This document shows, in pieces, positions 2,371 to 8,243 of a DNA stretch of 29,835 bases; within the stretch, counting starts at the first letter, position 1; every line of letters starts with the position of its first letter. This DNA comes from a virus. Taxonomy: Duplodnaviria; Caudoviricetes. Location of the stretch: positions 1 through 29,835 of IMG/VR virus record IMGVR_UViG_3300038393_001238; one strand, 5' to 3'. The notes below the pieces were generated by a model. That model did not search any database. It had not been told where the DNA came from and was given only the letters and a program-made list of their open reading frames with translations. A program made the position numbers and the translations under genes.

Positions 2371-2458
2371 CCGCTCCAACAACCCCAAGAGCGGCAAGGC
2401 CGAGCCAGAACGGGCCTCCGATCACGAAGCCGATGAGGAGGAGTCCGGCGGCGGTCAA
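2333..2458 (-). CDS. 41-aa hydrophobic membrane peptide after the spanins (not in ORF track)
   Basis: TTG 2458 overlaps the spanin TGA (TTGA), with GGGGG upstream. Translates as MTAAGLLLIGFVIGGPFWLGLAALGVVGAARAVWRMAERWL. Confidence 0.6.
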   Translation of the reverse strand: MTAAGLLLIGFVIGGPFWLGLAALGVVGAARAVWRMAERWL

Positions 2459-2991
2459 AACAGCCCCCAGCGCTTCTTGGGCTTGGCAGGCTTAGCCGCT
2501 AGCGCCGCGTACCAGGCGCGCCACTTGCCCGCTTCGTCGAGGCCGTTACGACCGGCGCTGAGGTTTCCGACGTCAAGCTCGAGGTGCTGTGAGAGCGCAA
2601 CTCCGGAAGCGGCCTCGTCAGATCCACCGGTGCCGGTGGCAGGGGCGGGCAGACCGAGGGCCGCGGCGTCATATGCCCGCACGAAGCCAGACCCAAGCAC
2701 GCAACGGCTATCAGCAGCTTTCGAGACATAGATGGGAATCCTCTTGATGATCGTCTCTTTGCGGACCTGGGTGGCGGCTTGGGCCTGGGCGAACTGATCC
2801 CGAAGGCCGGCGCTCATCTGCGCATCCGCCGCAGCCGTCACGGTGGCCTTGGCGACCGCTTCGGCCTCGCGCTGTGCATAGGCCTTGCGCACGCTCTCGG
2901 CCCCGGAGTGGCGGACGAGACCCAGGACCAGCACAAGGGCCGCAGCAATCCCCAGGAAGCGCCCCAGCGGCGAGAGCAGGAGGCCGAGCAC
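2455..2991 (-). CDS. Rz: Rz-like inner-membrane spanin
   Basis: GTG 2991 lies just after the upstream TAG. N-terminal TM, Ala/Gln coiled coil, IPIYV..ADSRC....GFVRAYDAAA motif. Downstream of the endolysin and contains a nested lipoprotein gene. Confidence 0.85.
   Translation of the reverse strand: MLGLLLSPLGRFLGIAAALVLVLGLVRHSGAESVRKAYAQREAEAVAKATVTAAADAQMSAGLRDQFAQAQAATQVRKETIIKRIPIYVSKAADSRCVLGSGFVRAYDAAALGLPAPATGTGGSDEAASGVALSQHLELDVGNLSAGRNGLDEAGKWRAWYAALAAKPAKPKKRWGLF
2499..2729 (-). CDS. Rz1: Rz1-like outer-membrane spanin lipoprotein, fully nested in Rz
   Basis: MSRKLLIAVACLGLASC is a signal peptide II with a LASC lipobox, followed by Pro-rich CPPLPPAPVDLTRPLP, in an alternate frame inside Rz. 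Confidence 0.8.
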   Translation of the reverse strand: MSRKLLIAVACLGLASCGHMTPRPSVCPPLPPAPVDLTRPLPELRSHSTSSLTSETSAPVVTASTKRASGAPGTRR

Positions 2992-2993
2992 CG

Positions 2994-3203
2994 CTAGCCG
3001 CCCTGCGACTGCTTTGCGGCTTCCATCGCCTTGGCGACTTCGCCCAGCACCCGTTGCTCCGAGGCCGAGACCACCTGTCCGAACGCCTCCAGATGGGCCT
3101 TGACCACATCCAGCGGGTCTTGCTGACGGACGGCCGGCTTGTAGTGCAGCCAAGCGAGGATTGCTCCGGCGCCTAGGATGACGCCCAGGAAGAAGTTGAT
3201 CAT
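2994..3203 (-). CDS. Small single-TM protein in lysis cassette (holin/antiholin candidate)
   Basis: ATGA overlap with the endolysin stop. N-terminal TM MINFFLGVILGAGAILAWLHY. Confidence 0.75.
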   Translation of the reverse strand: MINFFLGVILGAGAILAWLHYKPAVRQQDPLDVVKAHLEAFGQVVSASEQRVLGEVAKAMEAAKQSQGG

Positions 3204-3994
3204 AGCTCTTTGGCCTCTCGGTTCTTGAGGTATGCGAAGACGACGGTCGCCACGGCTAGAGCCGCCGCGATCATGCCCAGATGGCTCACGGTCGCCTGGA
3301 TCACGCTCGATGATCCGGCATAGGGCGCGATGGCGTCGGACACCTGGGACACGGCGTGCTTGGCCGGCTCGATCACCTGGGAGCCGGCGGTGACGCAGGC
3401 CGAGACGCAGCCGGTGATGAAGGTCTTGGACTTGGCCAGCGGCTTGCCGGCGTTGGGCGCCTGCGGGGTCTCAACGGCGCGGGTGTAGGAAGACGGCTCG
3501 CTGACCGGGATGGCGTTGGCGACCGCCGCTGCGCCCGCCACGTCAGCGGTATTCCACAGCGCCACTTCCGCGGCCCGCCGGTTGTGTAGGCCTGCGATCG
3601 TGACGAGCGCGCCGTTCACGCGGGCCTTGTCGAAGCGCATCATCTGGGCCGGCGCGTCATTGATCTGTCCGGCGTTGAGCACCTTCCAGATCGTCCACTT
3701 CGGATCGCAGCCCAGGTTGAAGACGAAGCTGACCAGGGCGGCATATTGGTGGTCGCTGAGCCGGTCGATGATCTCCGGCTTGACGGCTAGCGCCAGCCGG
3801 GTGGCCGCCTTGGTCGCGTCGGTGAACAGATAGGCGTCGGCCTGAGCCTGCGTGATCGTCAGGCCGGGATGGACTTCAGGTCCGGTGTGGCCAACACCGA
3901 CGGTCCAGACAGAGGCCGAGTCCCTATAGGCGACAAGCCTACAAGACTCTGCCTCTTTGAGGAATTCAACGGCAATTTCAGGTACTTTTCTCAT
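3200..3994 (-). CDS. Endolysin, GH24 (T4/P21-type) lysozyme with C-terminal hydrophobic extension
   Basis: E16-x8-D25-x5-T31 triad, WTVGVGHT, ALVSFVFNLG, GLHNRRAAEVALW. ATG 3994 follows GAGGA. Confidence 0.95.
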   Translation of the reverse strand: MRKVPEIAVEFLKEAESCRLVAYRDSASVWTVGVGHTGPEVHPGLTITQAQADAYLFTDATKAATRLALAVKPEIIDRLSDHQYAALVSFVFNLGCDPKWTIWKVLNAGQINDAPAQMMRFDKARVNGALVTIAGLHNRRAAEVALWNTADVAGAAAVANAIPVSEPSSYTRAVETPQAPNAGKPLAKSKTFITGCVSACVTAGSQVIEPAKHAVSQVSDAIAPYAGSSSVIQATVSHLGMIAAALAVATVVFAYLKNREAKEL

Positions 3995-4011
3995 GCGTCC
4001 TCGCGGCGTCA

Positions 4012-4026
4012 TGGTATGATGTTGTT
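4012..4026 (+). promoter_or_regulatory. Extended -10 promoter (TGG-TATGAT) for a leaderless HNH transcript
   Basis: TATGAT 4015-4020 preceded by TG, 6 nt before ATG 4027. No SD. Confidence 0.6.
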
Positions 4027-4695
4027 ATGGCGAAGAACCCGCGGCTTATAGATATGACCGGCATTACAGCCGGTGACTGGACCGTTATTGTTCAGGATGG
4101 AAACCAGCCTGGAGGCGGCGCTCTTTGGCGCTGCGTTTGCAGGTGCGGCACCGAGCGCCGGGTCCTTGGCGCAGACTTGCGAAACGGAAAATCCACGAAT
4201 TGTGGATGTCGGGGCGCCGCGCGATTGGCCAACCTCGCCGCAACCCATCGGGAAACGGGAACTCGCATTTACCGGATTTGGAAGAACATGCGGGGCCGGT
4301 GCCGGAACCCGCGTAATCCGCAATATCCGCGCTATGGCGGCCGTGGGATCTCTATCTGTCAAGAATGGAACGACTACCCCGCTTTTCGCGACTGGGCGCT
4401 GGCACACGGATATCGTGATGATCTTTCGATAGAGCGGGTGGACGTTAACGGGAACTATTGTCCCGCGAATTGCACCTGGGCCGATGCTTATACCCAGTCG
4501 CGCAATCGTCGCTTTGTTACGCGCCGTAGCGATGGCGTCCCATGGGTTACTATAGCCGCAGAGAACGGAATCACTGCGGCCAGGTATAACAACCGCGTTT
4601 ACGCGGGCTGGACCCGCGAGGCGGCAGCAAGTGAGCCGATTGGCACCCGCATTGCGCCAGCGCGACTCAGGAACGCAAAGGGCCGGTTCGCTTAA
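4027..4695 (+). CDS. Free-standing HNH-type homing endonuclease
   Basis: WRCVCRCG..STNCGC, RIWKNMRGRC, YGGRGISICQEW, LSIERVDVNGNYCPANCTWA. Antisense to the late operon and lower GC. Confidence 0.9.
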   Translation: MAKNPRLIDMTGITAGDWTVIVQDGNQPGGGALWRCVCRCGTERRVLGADLRNGKSTNCGCRGAARLANLAATHRETGTRIYRIWKNMRGRCRNPRNPQYPRYGGRGISICQEWNDYPAFRDWALAHGYRDDLSIERVDVNGNYCPANCTWADAYTQSRNRRFVTRRSDGVPWVTIAAENGITAARYNNRVYAGWTREAAASEPIGTRIAPARLRNAKGRFA

Positions 4696-4784
4696 ATCCG
4701 GTAGGCAGCCACCTTCGTGCTCTCGCTCATGACGACGGGCGTGACGCCGGCCTTGACGGTGATCGGGTTGGGCTGGTCGGTCAC
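4692..4784 (-). pseudogene. 30-codon remnant resembling a displaced endolysin N-terminus
   Basis: GTG 4784 overlaps the upstream TGA, with an AAAGGA SD. MTDQPNPITVKAGVTPVVMSESTKVAAYRI has the same ES-x4-AYR spacing as the endolysin's ESCRLVAYRD. Confidence 0.6.
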
Positions 4785-5215
4785 GGCTGGTCCTTTCCGA
4801 TGATGGTCGCGCCGGCGTCGGGCTCGGCCCCCGTGATCGGCGCGCCCGGGATCGGGATGCCGTGCCGCCGCAGCTCGTTCTTCAGGCTCTCGATGACCTG
4901 GGTGAGGTTGCGGATGTCGCCCTTGAGGCTGGCGCGCTCACCGGCCCAGGCCAGTTCGCGGCGGGTCGCCTCCTCCCGCAATGTCCGACACTCGGCCAGC
5001 AGGCTCGAACGCTCTTCCTGGAGGTCGGCCGTTAGCTTGGCGAAGCCGTCGTTGATGGCGTTCTGCACCGCGGCCTTGCCGAGCATGCGCTGGGCAAGCC
5101 AGAGGCCGAACGCGCCGAGCCCGGAGGTGATTGCGCCCCCGACCCAGCCCACCAGGCTGACGTGGCTCGGGTCCACACCGCCCACGTCTCCCGCCGCCAT
5201 TGCTATTGCCCGCAT
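4781..5215 (-). CDS. Holin-like protein (one TM plus coiled coil)
   Basis: VSLVGWVGGAITSGLGAFGLWLA TM, then heptad coiled coil. First gene of the lysis block. Start is 5215 or 5200. Confidence 0.7.
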   Translation of the reverse strand: MRAIAMAAGDVGGVDPSHVSLVGWVGGAITSGLGAFGLWLAQRMLGKAAVQNAINDGFAKLTADLQEERSSLLAECRTLREEATRRELAWAGERASLKGDIRNLTQVIESLKNELRRHGIPIPGAPITGAEPDAGATIIGKDQP

Positions 5216-5280
5216 CGAATAGGGGCCTTCAGATCGATCATGCTCGGGCTCCGGGTAAGCTGGGGCGCGCTTGGGGGGGG

Positions 5281-6153
5281 TTACGCGGCGTCGATGATGG
5301 CGGGCCAGGGGGCGAAGGGGGCGACCACATTGCCTGTCCGCGTCACGCCGGCCGTTGTGTAGATCGTGGTCTGCCACTTCGACCCGAGGCGGGTGCCGAC
5401 GCGGTTGCCGGTCACCTTGCCGGTGAGGTCGCCTTCTAGCCGGATGCCGTTCGGCGCGTCGGCCGTGTGCACCACGTTGTCTTCGATCACCGTCCCCTGC
5501 GCCGCCGGATAGCCGCTGATCAGGTTGACGAACACGCCTTGGGTCGCAGCGCCGGAGATGATGTTGCCACGCACGGTCACGCGCTGGTTGGGGACCTGGC
5601 CCACATAGCCCTGGATCCCGTCCACGTGCACGCCATCGGCGCCCGGCAGCGGCCCGGCCAGGGTGTTGTGCTCGATGGTCGTGTCCACGCAGGACCCGAA
5701 CCCGATCCCGTCGTCCTGCCAGCCCCAGATCAGGTTCTCGGTGACTAGGCCCCGGGTGACATTCCACAGGGTGACACCAACCTTCGGCCGGTCGAAGCGG
5801 CTGCGGATCAGGGTGACGTCGGTACTGTCGCGGATATCGATCCCGTTCAGGGAGCCGTTGCCGGCATAGGCGATGCCGTCCAGGGTCAGCTGCAGACAGT
5901 TGTAGATGGCCAGCCCAGGCCGCCCGATGGTGGGATCGGCGATGAAGTGGCCGCCCTTCCAGATGACGCCGGTCAAGGCCTTCAGCACCACGGCCCCGAT
6001 GTTGGCGGCAGAGGCGTCGACGGTGAGCGGCGTCGAGAAGCTGCGGGCCTGCAGCACGGCCAGGCCGAACTGTCCGGAGAGGTGCAGGACATCCCCCGGC
6101 TGGCACTGGGTGAAGACCGACGCGATGTCGGCCGAGGTGGCGTAGCGATCCAT
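5281..6153 (-). CDS. Right-handed parallel beta-helix (pectate-lyase-like) protein, putative depolymerase
   Basis: QPGDVLHLSG cap and repeated coils with Asn ladders (DGIGF..CVDTTIEHNT, HVDGIQ, VTVRGNII, TVIEDNVV). TAATG coupling to the upstream gene. Confidence 0.85.
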   Translation of the reverse strand: MDRYATSADIASVFTQCQPGDVLHLSGQFGLAVLQARSFSTPLTVDASAANIGAVVLKALTGVIWKGGHFIADPTIGRPGLAIYNCLQLTLDGIAYAGNGSLNGIDIRDSTDVTLIRSRFDRPKVGVTLWNVTRGLVTENLIWGWQDDGIGFGSCVDTTIEHNTLAGPLPGADGVHVDGIQGYVGQVPNQRVTVRGNIISGAATQGVFVNLISGYPAAQGTVIEDNVVHTADAPNGIRLEGDLTGKVTGNRVGTRLGSKWQTTIYTTAGVTRTGNVVAPFAPWPAIIDAA

Positions 6154-8243
6154 TAGGTGAGCCCCTTGATGCCGCGATAGGTGCCGAACACGAGCTGCGT
6201 CTGATTGAAGCCGCCGTTCAGGAAGTCGCCCATGCCGCCCTGGATGTCGTAGACGGGCGTCACGCCGTTGATGGCGGCCATGGGCGTGCGGGCCACCGGC
6301 GTGCCGTTGGTGTTCCAGATCGTGCGCGGGTTGAAGGTCGAGTTGACGCCGATGTCGCCATGGCCGCAGGCCAGCATCCCGAGCTTGCCGCGGAACTGGT
6401 TGCGGTTGGTGTCGCGGGCGTTGTTGAACTGCCAGGCGTAGGTCCAGAGGTTGGCGTCGCGCAGGGACAGGAAGCGCGGCGTCATCTTGCTGAACGCCAT
6501 GGTGGTCGAACCGGTCGTGCCGTTCAGCGTGCCGGAGTTGTCCCCCGCCCCGTTCTTATTGAAGATGTACTTGATGGTCGGAGTGGCCGGCGAAGCATCG
6601 ACCTGGAACGCGAACCAGGTGGCCTGCCCGGCCGCGAAGGCGACGACGTTCGGGCCGTTGAAGACGAACGAGCCGGCCGAGTTGACGCCGGTGAAGCGCA
6701 GGCTGGCATTGCCGGAGTTGATGTAGACCTGAAGCTTGGAATTGTCGCTGTGCGCCGCCTCCAGGTCGAGCAGGTACATGTTCTCGGTCATGTCCTGCGG
6801 CTGCAGCCAGCCGATGCCCCAGAACGTCGCCCCGTCCGAGAAGCCATTGTTCTCGCGGCCGACCAGGGAGAAGTCGGTGCGCGAGGTGAGCGGGCTCTCG
6901 CCGGAGTACGGCAGCGCCCAGAGCCGGGGAACGGTCTGCGTCGAGGGCTGGCCGATGCGGAAGTCCACCGGGCCGTGCTGCACGTGGCCGGAGGCGTCCG
7001 TGAGCTGGATGTCCAGCAGCATCTCGCCCTCGGTGAGAGAGCCGGTGCTGGACCGCGTGACGGTGATCGAGCCGGCGCCGTTGGTCGAGCCGTTGTCGGT
7101 GAGGGTCAGCTGCGTCACGGCGGCGTGGGTGGAGGCGTCCCACAGTGACAGGGTGGCCGGCGCACTGCCCACGTAGTAGATGGTCCCGACCGTCGTTCCG
7201 GCCGCGTCGTCCTGCTTGCAATAGAGTTCAGCCGGACACGGGACGGGCGCGCCCTGACCCTGGAAGGCCACGAGGATGTCGATCGCCACCTGCGCCCACA
7301 CCGCATAGCCCCAGCGCGACAAGTGCTTGGCGTCGAACAGGGAGGACGATGTGCCGCTCCAGGCGCCGGAGGCGTTCTTCCGCCAGATGCCGCCGCCGTT
7401 GAAGGGCGCGGCCACGTTCTGGATGATGTCGCCCTCGGCATAGCCGGCTGCGGGCGCCGCCGCCTCGATGCCGGCGCCCGTGTTCGTCGCCGTGTTGGTC
7501 CAGTTCCACGTGCTGGGCGGGTTGCTGCGGAAAAGGTCGGTGCTCTGCCCCTCGTACTCGATGGGCTTGCCCCAGAACTGGTTGAGGTTCGTAACCCCGA
7601 CCCCGCTCTGGCCCTGCTGCGCGCCGACGAACTGGATGTAGCGGCGGATGTCGAAGATATGGGCGCCGTAGGTCGCCTGCAGGCTCCGGTGCATGTAGCG
7701 CCAAGACGCCCACTGCTTCATGCCGGGGCCGGCATCGTCTTCGCCGTGAGCGTCGAAGTAGGTCCACCACTGCGAGGTTCCGCCGGTGAACGAGGGCAGG
7801 ATCGTCCCGGAGATCACTGTGGGGATGTTGACGTCCCACAGCCGCAGGTTCGGCTCGGTCTGAACGCCGGTGTTGTAGTCGTTGAGGCCGCCGGTGAAGA
7901 ACTGGTGGTTGTTCGCAAGGGGCGTCGCGCCCTGCCCCGTGATCTGTGTGGCGATCGGGCTGGTGTTGAGGCCCGTCCCGCCCGTCTGCACGGACATCCC
8001 CGACACTTCCTTGCGCAGGAAAGTCACGGTCGCGAGGCCGACCGCCTGGCCGGGCCAGGAATAGTCCGTGGGCGAGTTCTGCGTTCCGACGCCAACCACG
8101 GTGGAGTCGCCGGCCGTGGTGACGTTCTTGGCGATCGTCGGGCTCGAAGGGCGGGAGGTGGCCTGGAACGTCACCGGCGCCGCGCCAGACGCCGCGGGAC
8201 CGCCGAACGGCATCCCCAGCCCGATCCCAAGGCTCATTGCCAT
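6153..8243 (-). CDS. Virion fibre: N-terminal LGIGLG anchor, SGNH hydrolase, cadherin-like and LamG-like domains
   Basis: MSLGIGLGM start, SGNH blocks AGDS / GGLND / DAKHLSRWGY, GTTVGTI..LTDASG Ig-like segment, aromatic beta-sandwich C-terminus. Confidence 0.8.
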   Translation of the reverse strand: MAMSLGIGLGMPFGGPAASGAAPVTFQATSRPSSPTIAKNVTTAGDSTVVGVGTQNSPTDYSWPGQAVGLATVTFLRKEVSGMSVQTGGTGLNTSPIATQITGQGATPLANNHQFFTGGLNDYNTGVQTEPNLRLWDVNIPTVISGTILPSFTGGTSQWWTYFDAHGEDDAGPGMKQWASWRYMHRSLQATYGAHIFDIRRYIQFVGAQQGQSGVGVTNLNQFWGKPIEYEGQSTDLFRSNPPSTWNWTNTATNTGAGIEAAAPAAGYAEGDIIQNVAAPFNGGGIWRKNASGAWSGTSSSLFDAKHLSRWGYAVWAQVAIDILVAFQGQGAPVPCPAELYCKQDDAAGTTVGTIYYVGSAPATLSLWDASTHAAVTQLTLTDNGSTNGAGSITVTRSSTGSLTEGEMLLDIQLTDASGHVQHGPVDFRIGQPSTQTVPRLWALPYSGESPLTSRTDFSLVGRENNGFSDGATFWGIGWLQPQDMTENMYLLDLEAAHSDNSKLQVYINSGNASLRFTGVNSAGSFVFNGPNVVAFAAGQATWFAFQVDASPATPTIKYIFNKNGAGDNSGTLNGTTGSTTMAFSKMTPRFLSLRDANLWTYAWQFNNARDTNRNQFRGKLGMLACGHGDIGVNSTFNPRTIWNTNGTPVARTPMAAINGVTPVYDIQGGMGDFLNGGFNQTQLVFGTYRGIKGLT

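Follow-up and report, generated by a model that had tools for sequence, protein, structure and literature searches.

An antisense HNH gene family in phage lysis cassettes probably homes by replacing the 5' ends of lysin genes

Mobile endonuclease genes that nick a target, co-convert its flanks and leave gene hybrids behind have precedents in T4-like phages and fungal mitochondria (PMC2988022 and PMC3630166, in the parts drawn on here). In the fungal gene-hybrid mORFs (Allomyces atp6; Glomus atp6, atp9, cox2 and nad3), as described in the sections of PMC3630166 used, an endonuclease gene lies inside coding sequence together with a foreign copy of a terminus, and the native terminus is stranded with no splicing involved. 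It is the C-terminus that is replaced in those genes, the nucleases are of the LAGLIDADG or GIY-YIG type, and several are in phase with the host gene. The free-standing seg and mob genes of T4-like phages (PMC2988022) are patchily distributed and co-convert a flanking gene, and segD runs antisense to its neighbours. They cut hundreds to thousands of bases from their own gene, and the parts of that review used here describe no duplicated terminus and present segD without a predicted promoter. The same parts cover genes in pieces (Aeh1 mobE in nrdA, T4 mobA in gene 60), where a free-standing HNH gene sits in a functionally critical part of a gene and both pieces are made and reassemble. Atypical HNH domains missed by Pfam and encoded near essential genes are found among the IPA-HNH and CapR-domain homing endonucleases of ICP1 (PMC10448857); the former carry an AP2 domain, and the portion of that paper used treats atypical phage HNHs without a lysin, antisense or start-codon layout. 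PacI, a dimeric restriction enzyme with a His-Me finger, uses a loop Tyr instead of the general-base His (PMC5714182 and PMC3384342, in the parts used). Engineered Cleave-and-Rescue drives, as far as their description was drawn on, offer a conceptual parallel. A search of the open-licence literature returned no description of an antisense HNH gene with a replaced start in phage lysins.

The locus analysed here resembles these systems in parts. As in the fungal mORFs, an endonuclease gene is associated with a duplicated terminus, but it is the N-terminus with the catalytic triad that appears to be replaced, the nuclease is an atypical antisense HNH and the host is a phage; membership among the fungal gene hybrids was rejected on the first two of these points. 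The seg and mob genes share its free-standing state, whereas the HNH cassette is inserted inside the 5' end of its target, leaves a stub and has its own predicted promoter. Genes in pieces were rejected as a class because comparison with 120 homologues shows a full-length downstream endolysin with the triad, the upstream piece being redundant. IPA-HNH membership was rejected since the HNH protein has no C-terminal AP2 domain (no Pfam match at E <= 1), and its Cys-rich domain recalls CapR by motif only.

The window, that is the whole stretch of DNA analysed, is a virus record of 29,835 bases whose genes include those for a capsid and portal of SU10 type, a terminase and a tail, alongside a lysis cassette on the minus strand. 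Eleven sequencing runs are listed with its sequence, all from soil or rhizosphere, and 9 of them cover at least half of it, three of these being possible sources of the record. A single named endolysin homologue suggests a Caulobacteraceae-like host. Along the minus strand, a 144-aa gene is followed by a 30-codon stub, the antisense HNH gene, a GH24 endolysin gene, a 69-aa gene and an Rz-like gene (Table 1). The layout and coordinates given in the preliminary description, including the overlaps at both ends of the stub, were borne out by the sequence and an open reading frame check: a GTGA overlap joins the stub start to the stop of the upstream gene, with the claimed Shine-Dalgarno sequence AAAGGA 6 nt upstream, and the TAA codons of the stub and the HNH gene share TTAA at 4692-4695. 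A holin role for the upstream gene is unproven, its sole basis being the match to phrog_2658. For the 69-aa gene, no family was found in Pfam and PHROGs at E 0.01. The sequence GACCAGCC is present twice on the minus strand at 4776-4794, at the end of the upstream gene (KDQP) and at the stub start (TDQP). Elsewhere, at 5281-8243, the beta-helix gene is 97% identical to viral contig L081 and the adjoining 696-aa gene just 54%, a mosaic tail region.

Table 1 Features of the lysis cassette in the window
Feature	Position	Strand	Basis
Rz-like spanin	2455..2997	-	PHROGs Rz-like, E 1e-7
Embedded Rz1-like ORF inside Rz-like gene	2499-2729		Position and Cys motif
69-aa gene, hydrophobic N-terminus, candidate lysis gene	2994..3203	-	Open reading frame
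Endolysin, GH24	3200..3994	-	PF00959, E 5e-31
Endolysin body, GH24, hydrophobic C-terminus, host-like G/C-ending codons	3200..3868	-	Pfam, codon composition
Endolysin replacement 5' end, codons 1-42, with E16/D25/T31 and A/T-rich third positions	3869..3994	-	Codon composition, alignment
GAGGA Shine-Dalgarno-like motif of replacement start, merely 3 nt ahead of ATG 3994	3998..4002	-	Sequence
TG-n-TATGAT, 6 nt upstream of HNH ATG, predicted extended -10 promoter	4012..4020	+	TAnnnT position counts
Antisense atypical HNH endonuclease (predicted), 222 aa	4027..4695	+	phrog_374 HNH, E 2e-59
30-codon stub, probable composite relic	4692..4784	-	GTG start overlaps TGA of upstream gene; GC3 28/30
Stub codons 21-29 (E-x6-Y-R), lysozyme-like relic, its end abutting the expected position of the catalytic Asp	4698..4724	-	Shuffles, window ranks
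Probable fork in the assembly graph after stub codon 25	4709..4710		Contig ends
Stub codons 1-18, like N-termini of Pam3-gp28-like holins	4731..4784	-	HMM of 17 such proteins
Upstream gene, 144 aa, one hydrophobic segment and likely coiled coil	4781..5215	-	phrog_2658 'hol-like chemotaxis', E 8.5e-10; 13 homologues

The HNH protein gave no Pfam match at E <= 1, and distant HNHs of less than 60% identity were all that GenBank phages and plasmids contained. About 100 close homologues (50-62% identity) share the start MAKNPRLID. At the canonical general-base His position, Arg occurred (as ER or DR) in 116 of 120 homologues, with four unmatched; as no His follows the Asp or Glu in those 116, a canonical His-dependent HNH was ruled out. 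Core residues R137, Y144, N148 and N160 were invariant in the alignment. The model of the full protein (pLDDT 91) consists of an N-terminal Cys-rich domain, a beta-beta-alpha-metal-like core and a helical C-terminal domain, while a single-domain model reached a pLDDT of 44. The best nuclease fold match was PacI over residues 76-184, a weak match (Z 4.4, rmsd 4.6, 90 residues, 17% identity). Foldseek with the model returned nothing at E <= 0.001, and a PDB sequence search with the HNH profile gave no matches. The absence of the general-base His and the invariance of Y144 recall PacI, and the HNH may use a PacI-like Tyr (Y144) in place of His, a putative residue equivalence read from that weak match. 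Nuclease activity is inferred from residue conservation together with the near-identical island described below for two relatives, L287 and L291. At 8 of 13 HNH loci (the window counted), the motif TAnnnT, mostly preceded by TG, stands 5-6 nt upstream of the HNH start, vs none of 24 window genes; a leaderless antisense mRNA with its own promoter is predicted from this. A sigma-70 scan identified no full promoter.

A compositional step was found within the endolysin gene. The reported count of 21 A/T-ending codons among the first 42, followed by a switch to G/C, agreed with our analysis: 21/42 A/T third positions vs 26/222 in the next codons (Fisher p 1e-7), with the best composition change point at codon 42, i.e. 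within the gene. The G/C-ending codons reported for the stub were likewise confirmed, A/T third positions numbering 2/30. The A/T-ending excess of the window endolysin (0.38) was reached by 0/99 distinct lysozymes at HNH-less loci, whose maximum was 0.215, and the highest value among 43 HNH-less lysozymes with a GC-rich body was 13 A/T-ending codons of 42. The mean excess over the first 42 codons was 0.19 at 13 HNH loci (the window in, L291 out) and 0.04 in the 99 controls (p 2e-6). It was positive at 9 of the 11 newly found HNH loci and close to zero at L285, L322, L335 and L336. Part of this 5' A/T richness could serve the overlapping HNH promoter.

E16, D25 and T31 of the endolysin were invariant across 41 aligned sequences. 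Relatives lacking the HNH gene had been predicted to start like the stub (MTDQPNP), which did not hold: 111 of the 120 homologues begin R-x-[IVLTP]-P and none MTD..PxPI, an MRxVP-type start being the norm. The replacement start is therefore not unusual, and by alignment the MRKVP-type start of the window endolysin appears ordinary for the family. Similarly, the proposed 'recoded' active-site exon stands as a replacement 5' end covering the triad, but is better described as a foreign, divergent copy than as recoded. The suggested uncoupling of the endolysin from the holin-like gene was upheld in so far as the endolysin has its own start and Shine-Dalgarno motif (GAGGA); coupling of the old endolysin to the gene at 4781-5215 was not supported, because a small gene intervenes at three homologous loci. 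No stable hairpin was predicted over the replacement Shine-Dalgarno motif (z +1.4). At its other end, the hydrophobic C-terminus of the endolysin (3200-3304, minus strand) scored 12.1 bits on a holin-like HMM, top of 1288 window 30-mers, and may stand in for a lost holin.

The preliminary description had read the 30-codon stub as the old catalytic N-terminus of the endolysin, matched through ES-x4-AYR. The stub was scored alone against N-terminal profiles, and its two ends behaved differently. The last nine residues were beaten by 6 of 10,000 shuffles against the lysozyme profile and ranked 4 of 50,108 six-frame windows, whereas the whole stub scored -20 bits over 21 columns, with an HMM E-value of 0.08; the ES-x4-AYR match thus holds weakly for the last nine residues, and the stub fits poorly as an entire lysozyme start. 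Over the 10 residues ahead of the stub Glu, a broad GH24 profile gave a neutral score (0.8 bits). Codons 1-18 fitted the starts of Pam3-gp28-like holins better than any lysozyme start tested, reaching 6.8 bits against an HMM of 17 such proteins (2/5000 shuffles, 4/5000 with Met fixed). The HMM of all 17 ranked the stub 3 of 1288 start-anchored 30-mers, and a subgroup picked after the likeness was noticed ranked it 1 of 1288. The likeness is one of the N-terminal M[TS]D..P-I-V..[TN]P, which scores modestly; the two membrane helices are missing from the stub, so that PF23987 cannot match. Small membrane proteins resembling the stub front (PF23987 Pam3-gp28-like, some below cut-off) precede lysozymes at L185, L196 and L303, and 9 of 16 residues were identical between the stub and the L303 protein. 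L192 (2590-3480) carries an in-frame fusion between a further holin-like gene of this small family and a GH24 lysozyme.

Searches for the upstream gene yielded one near-identical viral contig, ending at its codon 22, and a few distant loci; all three distinct loci with a homologue have a small gene between it and the lysin. Together with the holin-like codons 1-18, this makes the window stub probably a composite. We consider the chances evenly balanced that it joins a holin start to a lysozyme relic. A diverged lysozyme start is a lesser, though substantial, possibility, and a wholly holin origin is unlikely. An L340-type lysozyme origin of the whole stub (both start NPIT) scored weakly (321/5000 shuffles by HMM, 36/2000 pairwise). 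The claim of a stranded catalytic N-terminus is accordingly sustained weakly for codons 21-29 and put in question by the holin-like fit of codons 1-18. In a protein search of 1.84 billion representatives, the stub matched itself and one unaligned long protein and nothing else. No match above 0.76 was found in Atlas, nor any Pfam or PHROG family, and a DNA pattern search gave two unrelated matches.

Metagenome contigs were inspected for alternative alleles. No HNH-less allele of the window phage, and no joint skipping the HNH gene, was found in the eight of 11 runs examined (contigs, mostly 60-73% of each run). In run X6, a contig covering 3600-4739 at depth 11.3 and another covering 4710-4981 at depth 17.5 have exactly 30 nt (4710-4739) in common, and a contig of run X5 ends at 4710 as well, while run X4 passes unbroken. 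These contig ends point to a probable fork at 4709/4710, where a second allele would share the first 25 stub codons and not rejoin within 3600-4709. Such a fork probably puts a recent junction ahead of AAYR, which counts against the cassette reading of the window stub. In addition, a run X11 contig differs at seven bases in the upstream gene (4940-4961), and a related strain therefore exists.

To investigate the distribution of this arrangement, full-length HNH relatives with at least 40% identity were collected. A first motif identified six GTDB loci in five genomes, the viral locus L082 and seven further viral loci. Another motif, independent of the first, hit 28 viral sequences; 16 proved full length at >=40% identity, 11 of them new, and 10 of the 28 were not HNH. 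As a result, 24 distinct loci were compiled from the five GTDB genomes, L082, the seven viral loci and the 11 new ones. The set leaves out L281 (a second copy of L280), L326, L329, L333 and L338 (repeats), L343 (HNH identical to L336), L328 (N-terminal domain only) and L337 (36% identity, no lysin alongside). The HNH gene was antisense to and divergent from a lysin gene at 24 of 24 loci. The lysins comprised 22 of GH24 type (13 by Pfam, the rest by tblastn), one GH108 and one amidase. As controls, a lysozyme occurred near 1 of 79 more distant HNH loci, on the same strand, and none of 197 lysozyme loci carried the HNH. The 14 lysin-linked HNHs included in a quick tree formed one side of a branch, with a support of just 47. 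In Phenylobacterium sp. J367, a further HNH that is a more distant relative (G001:C1:38911-39531) lies 2.6 kb from the lysin-linked gene.

Stubs at these relatives were scored by comparing open starts within 130 nt of the HNH stop with lysozyme starts. A clear stranded lysozyme start was present at 13 of the 24 loci (L284, L285, L287, L289, L290, L291, L318, L321, L322, L334, L335, L336 and L340); the stub was ambiguous at one (L327), short and non-significant at three (L279, L282 and L286) and absent at seven. At 7 of the 13 clear-stub loci, bases at the Tyr codon seven positions after the Glu supply the HNH stop codon on the complementary strand, and the other clear stubs end anywhere from just before the Glu to the Asp. 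Stub lengths range from 0 to over 30 codons, with 0-3 codons at several loci, and coupling of the stub to the upstream gene was clear at L282, L284 and L287. A W-R-R-stop tail is common to the HNHs of L280, L282, L287, L291, L331 and L342, and its other strand reads as a lysozyme Tyr-Arg relic in most of them, so that an old junction seems to travel with the cassette. A longer ORF end was detected 3' of the HNH at L327 (3/1000 shuffles), which may be the start of another lysozyme type.

Two cases extend beyond GH24. The HNHs of L283 (GH108) and L284 (GH24) are 74% identical, and similar N-terminal extensions of both lysins overlap the HNH ATG; the two start codons overlap head to head (CATG) around 2500. 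At L322 (1401-2685), a GH24 lysozyme start is stranded before the HNH and the gene beyond encodes an Amidase_2 lysin, which is a whole-lysin replacement. As these loci show, the cassette can also come to rest at lysins of other families.

The extent of the mobile unit was read from L287 and L291. They agree at 847 of 853 positions (99.3%) in a block that opens at the Tyr seven residues after the catalytic Glu, takes in the HNH gene and closes three codons beyond the catalytic Thr, with 169/169 over the spacer and replacement start. The flanks matched less well: 70/98 (71%) in the stub, 277/331 (84%) in the holin gene and 287/332 (86%) in the lysozyme body. The 99% block is likely the mobile unit, made up of the HNH, the spacer with its Shine-Dalgarno sequence and a replacement 5' end with Glu-Asp-Thr; its exact ends rest on this one phage pair. 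At the family level, this block and the 24 consistent loci support the mobile unit that had been proposed from the window. The proposed absence of an intron or intein also agreed with the data, as the HNH is a separate antisense ORF, the region 3000-5500 has no Rfam match at E <= 1 and the downstream gene is complete with its own start. Outside any intron or intein, the HNH combines a nuclease domain with DNA-binding modules (predicted by the three-domain model), and it is patchy among related phages (0/197 lysozyme loci) with a co-converted flank (the L287/L291 island). A duplicated terminus with a foreign functional copy was seen at 13 of 24 loci, along with the A/T excess, and is weak for the window stub taken alone. 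By such sequence criteria, the cassette would be classed as a free-standing homing endonuclease that, set beside the cited parts of the fungal work, acts like the gene hybrids at the opposite end of the gene.

Taken together, the HNH family is probably a homing cassette that replaces the lysin 5' end with about 40 foreign codons, keeping the lysin whole without splicing. Besides the HNH gene and the leaderless promoter predicted for it, the cassette would carry a ribosome-binding site and, as a foreign copy, the first ~40 lysin codons with Glu-Asp-Thr. During co-infection, the nuclease would nick an HNH-less lysozyme gene inside the E-D-T coding stretch. Repair from the carrier would then draw on homology in the holin or stub on the left and in the lysin body on the right, with crossovers near the Tyr seven codons after the Glu and just beyond the Thr, respectively. 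This would strand the recipient's native start as a stub, the incoming divergent copy would be immune to cutting, and later deletions would shorten the stubs, leaving 0-3 codons at several loci. Being antisense, the nuclease gene would stay clear of the reading frame of the late lysis transcript and under its own promoter. In the window, the replacement would span codons 1-42 (3994-3869), and the stub was probably remodelled later, when the start of a small Pam3-gp28-like holin gene was joined to the last lysozyme-relic codons.

For the window itself, an ordinary intronless homing event or lysis-module swap would require the ORF to be wholly the broken front of a Pam3-gp28-like holin, ES..AYR to be chance and the A/T-rich 5' end to be a co-converted flank. 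The holin-like codons 1-18, the small genes that follow homologues of the upstream gene, the fork at 4709/4710 with no rejoining inside 3600-4709 and the normality of MRxVP starts all agree with it, and L322 shows that a whole lysin can change. However, the ORF ends Y-R exactly at E+7/E+8, as the stubs of relatives do, unmistakable lysozyme stubs exist in 13 of 24 relatives, and the composition step lies inside the endolysin rather than at its end, which leaves this explanation improbable. Domestication of the HNH family in the lysis module, as an antisense lysis timer or a nuclease useful at lysis held by selection rather than homing, would account for the strict positional fidelity (24/24), the conserved antisense promoter-like motif and the non-canonical active site. 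It is very improbable given that 197 lysozyme loci lack the HNH, that the 99% island of L287/L291 is sharp, that the junk stubs vary in length and that the HNH stands beside three unrelated lysin families. Joining of the stub and the downstream gene as exons or pieces, by splicing, ribosome bypass or protein assembly, is hardly credible: phage introns often contain HNH genes, and genes split like Aeh1 nrdA are known (PMC2988022, in the part used), but the HNH is antisense, stub lengths vary from 0 to over 30 codons, and a group I intron with an HNH ORF was rejected since no Rfam match at E <= 1 was found in 3000-5500 and joining to a complete gene with start and triad would duplicate the N-terminus.

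Returning to the homing cassette, its family represents a dedicated set of 24 loci with mapped ends rather than a one-off, and it points to a route by which a selfish nuclease enters an essential active-site motif without an intron or intein. It provides a testable cause for the shuffling of lysin N-termini and lysis cassettes, predicts, for a common phage family, a nuclease chemistry without His that is still uncharacterised, and cautions that short ORFs ahead of antisense HNH genes are relics overlooked by annotation. More tentatively, and at somewhat less than an even prospect, the clade may constitute a lysin-specific cleave-and-replace drive, in which a Tyr-based nuclease made from a leaderless antisense mRNA cuts the DNA encoding the Glu-x8-Asp-x5-Thr active site and recipient lysis cassettes are given foreign starts, signal-anchor helices or entire lysins of unrelated type (GH24, GH108, amidase). 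If true, such a drive would contribute to the mosaicism of lysis modules in proteobacterial phages, and the stubs would record the previous lysin of each phage.
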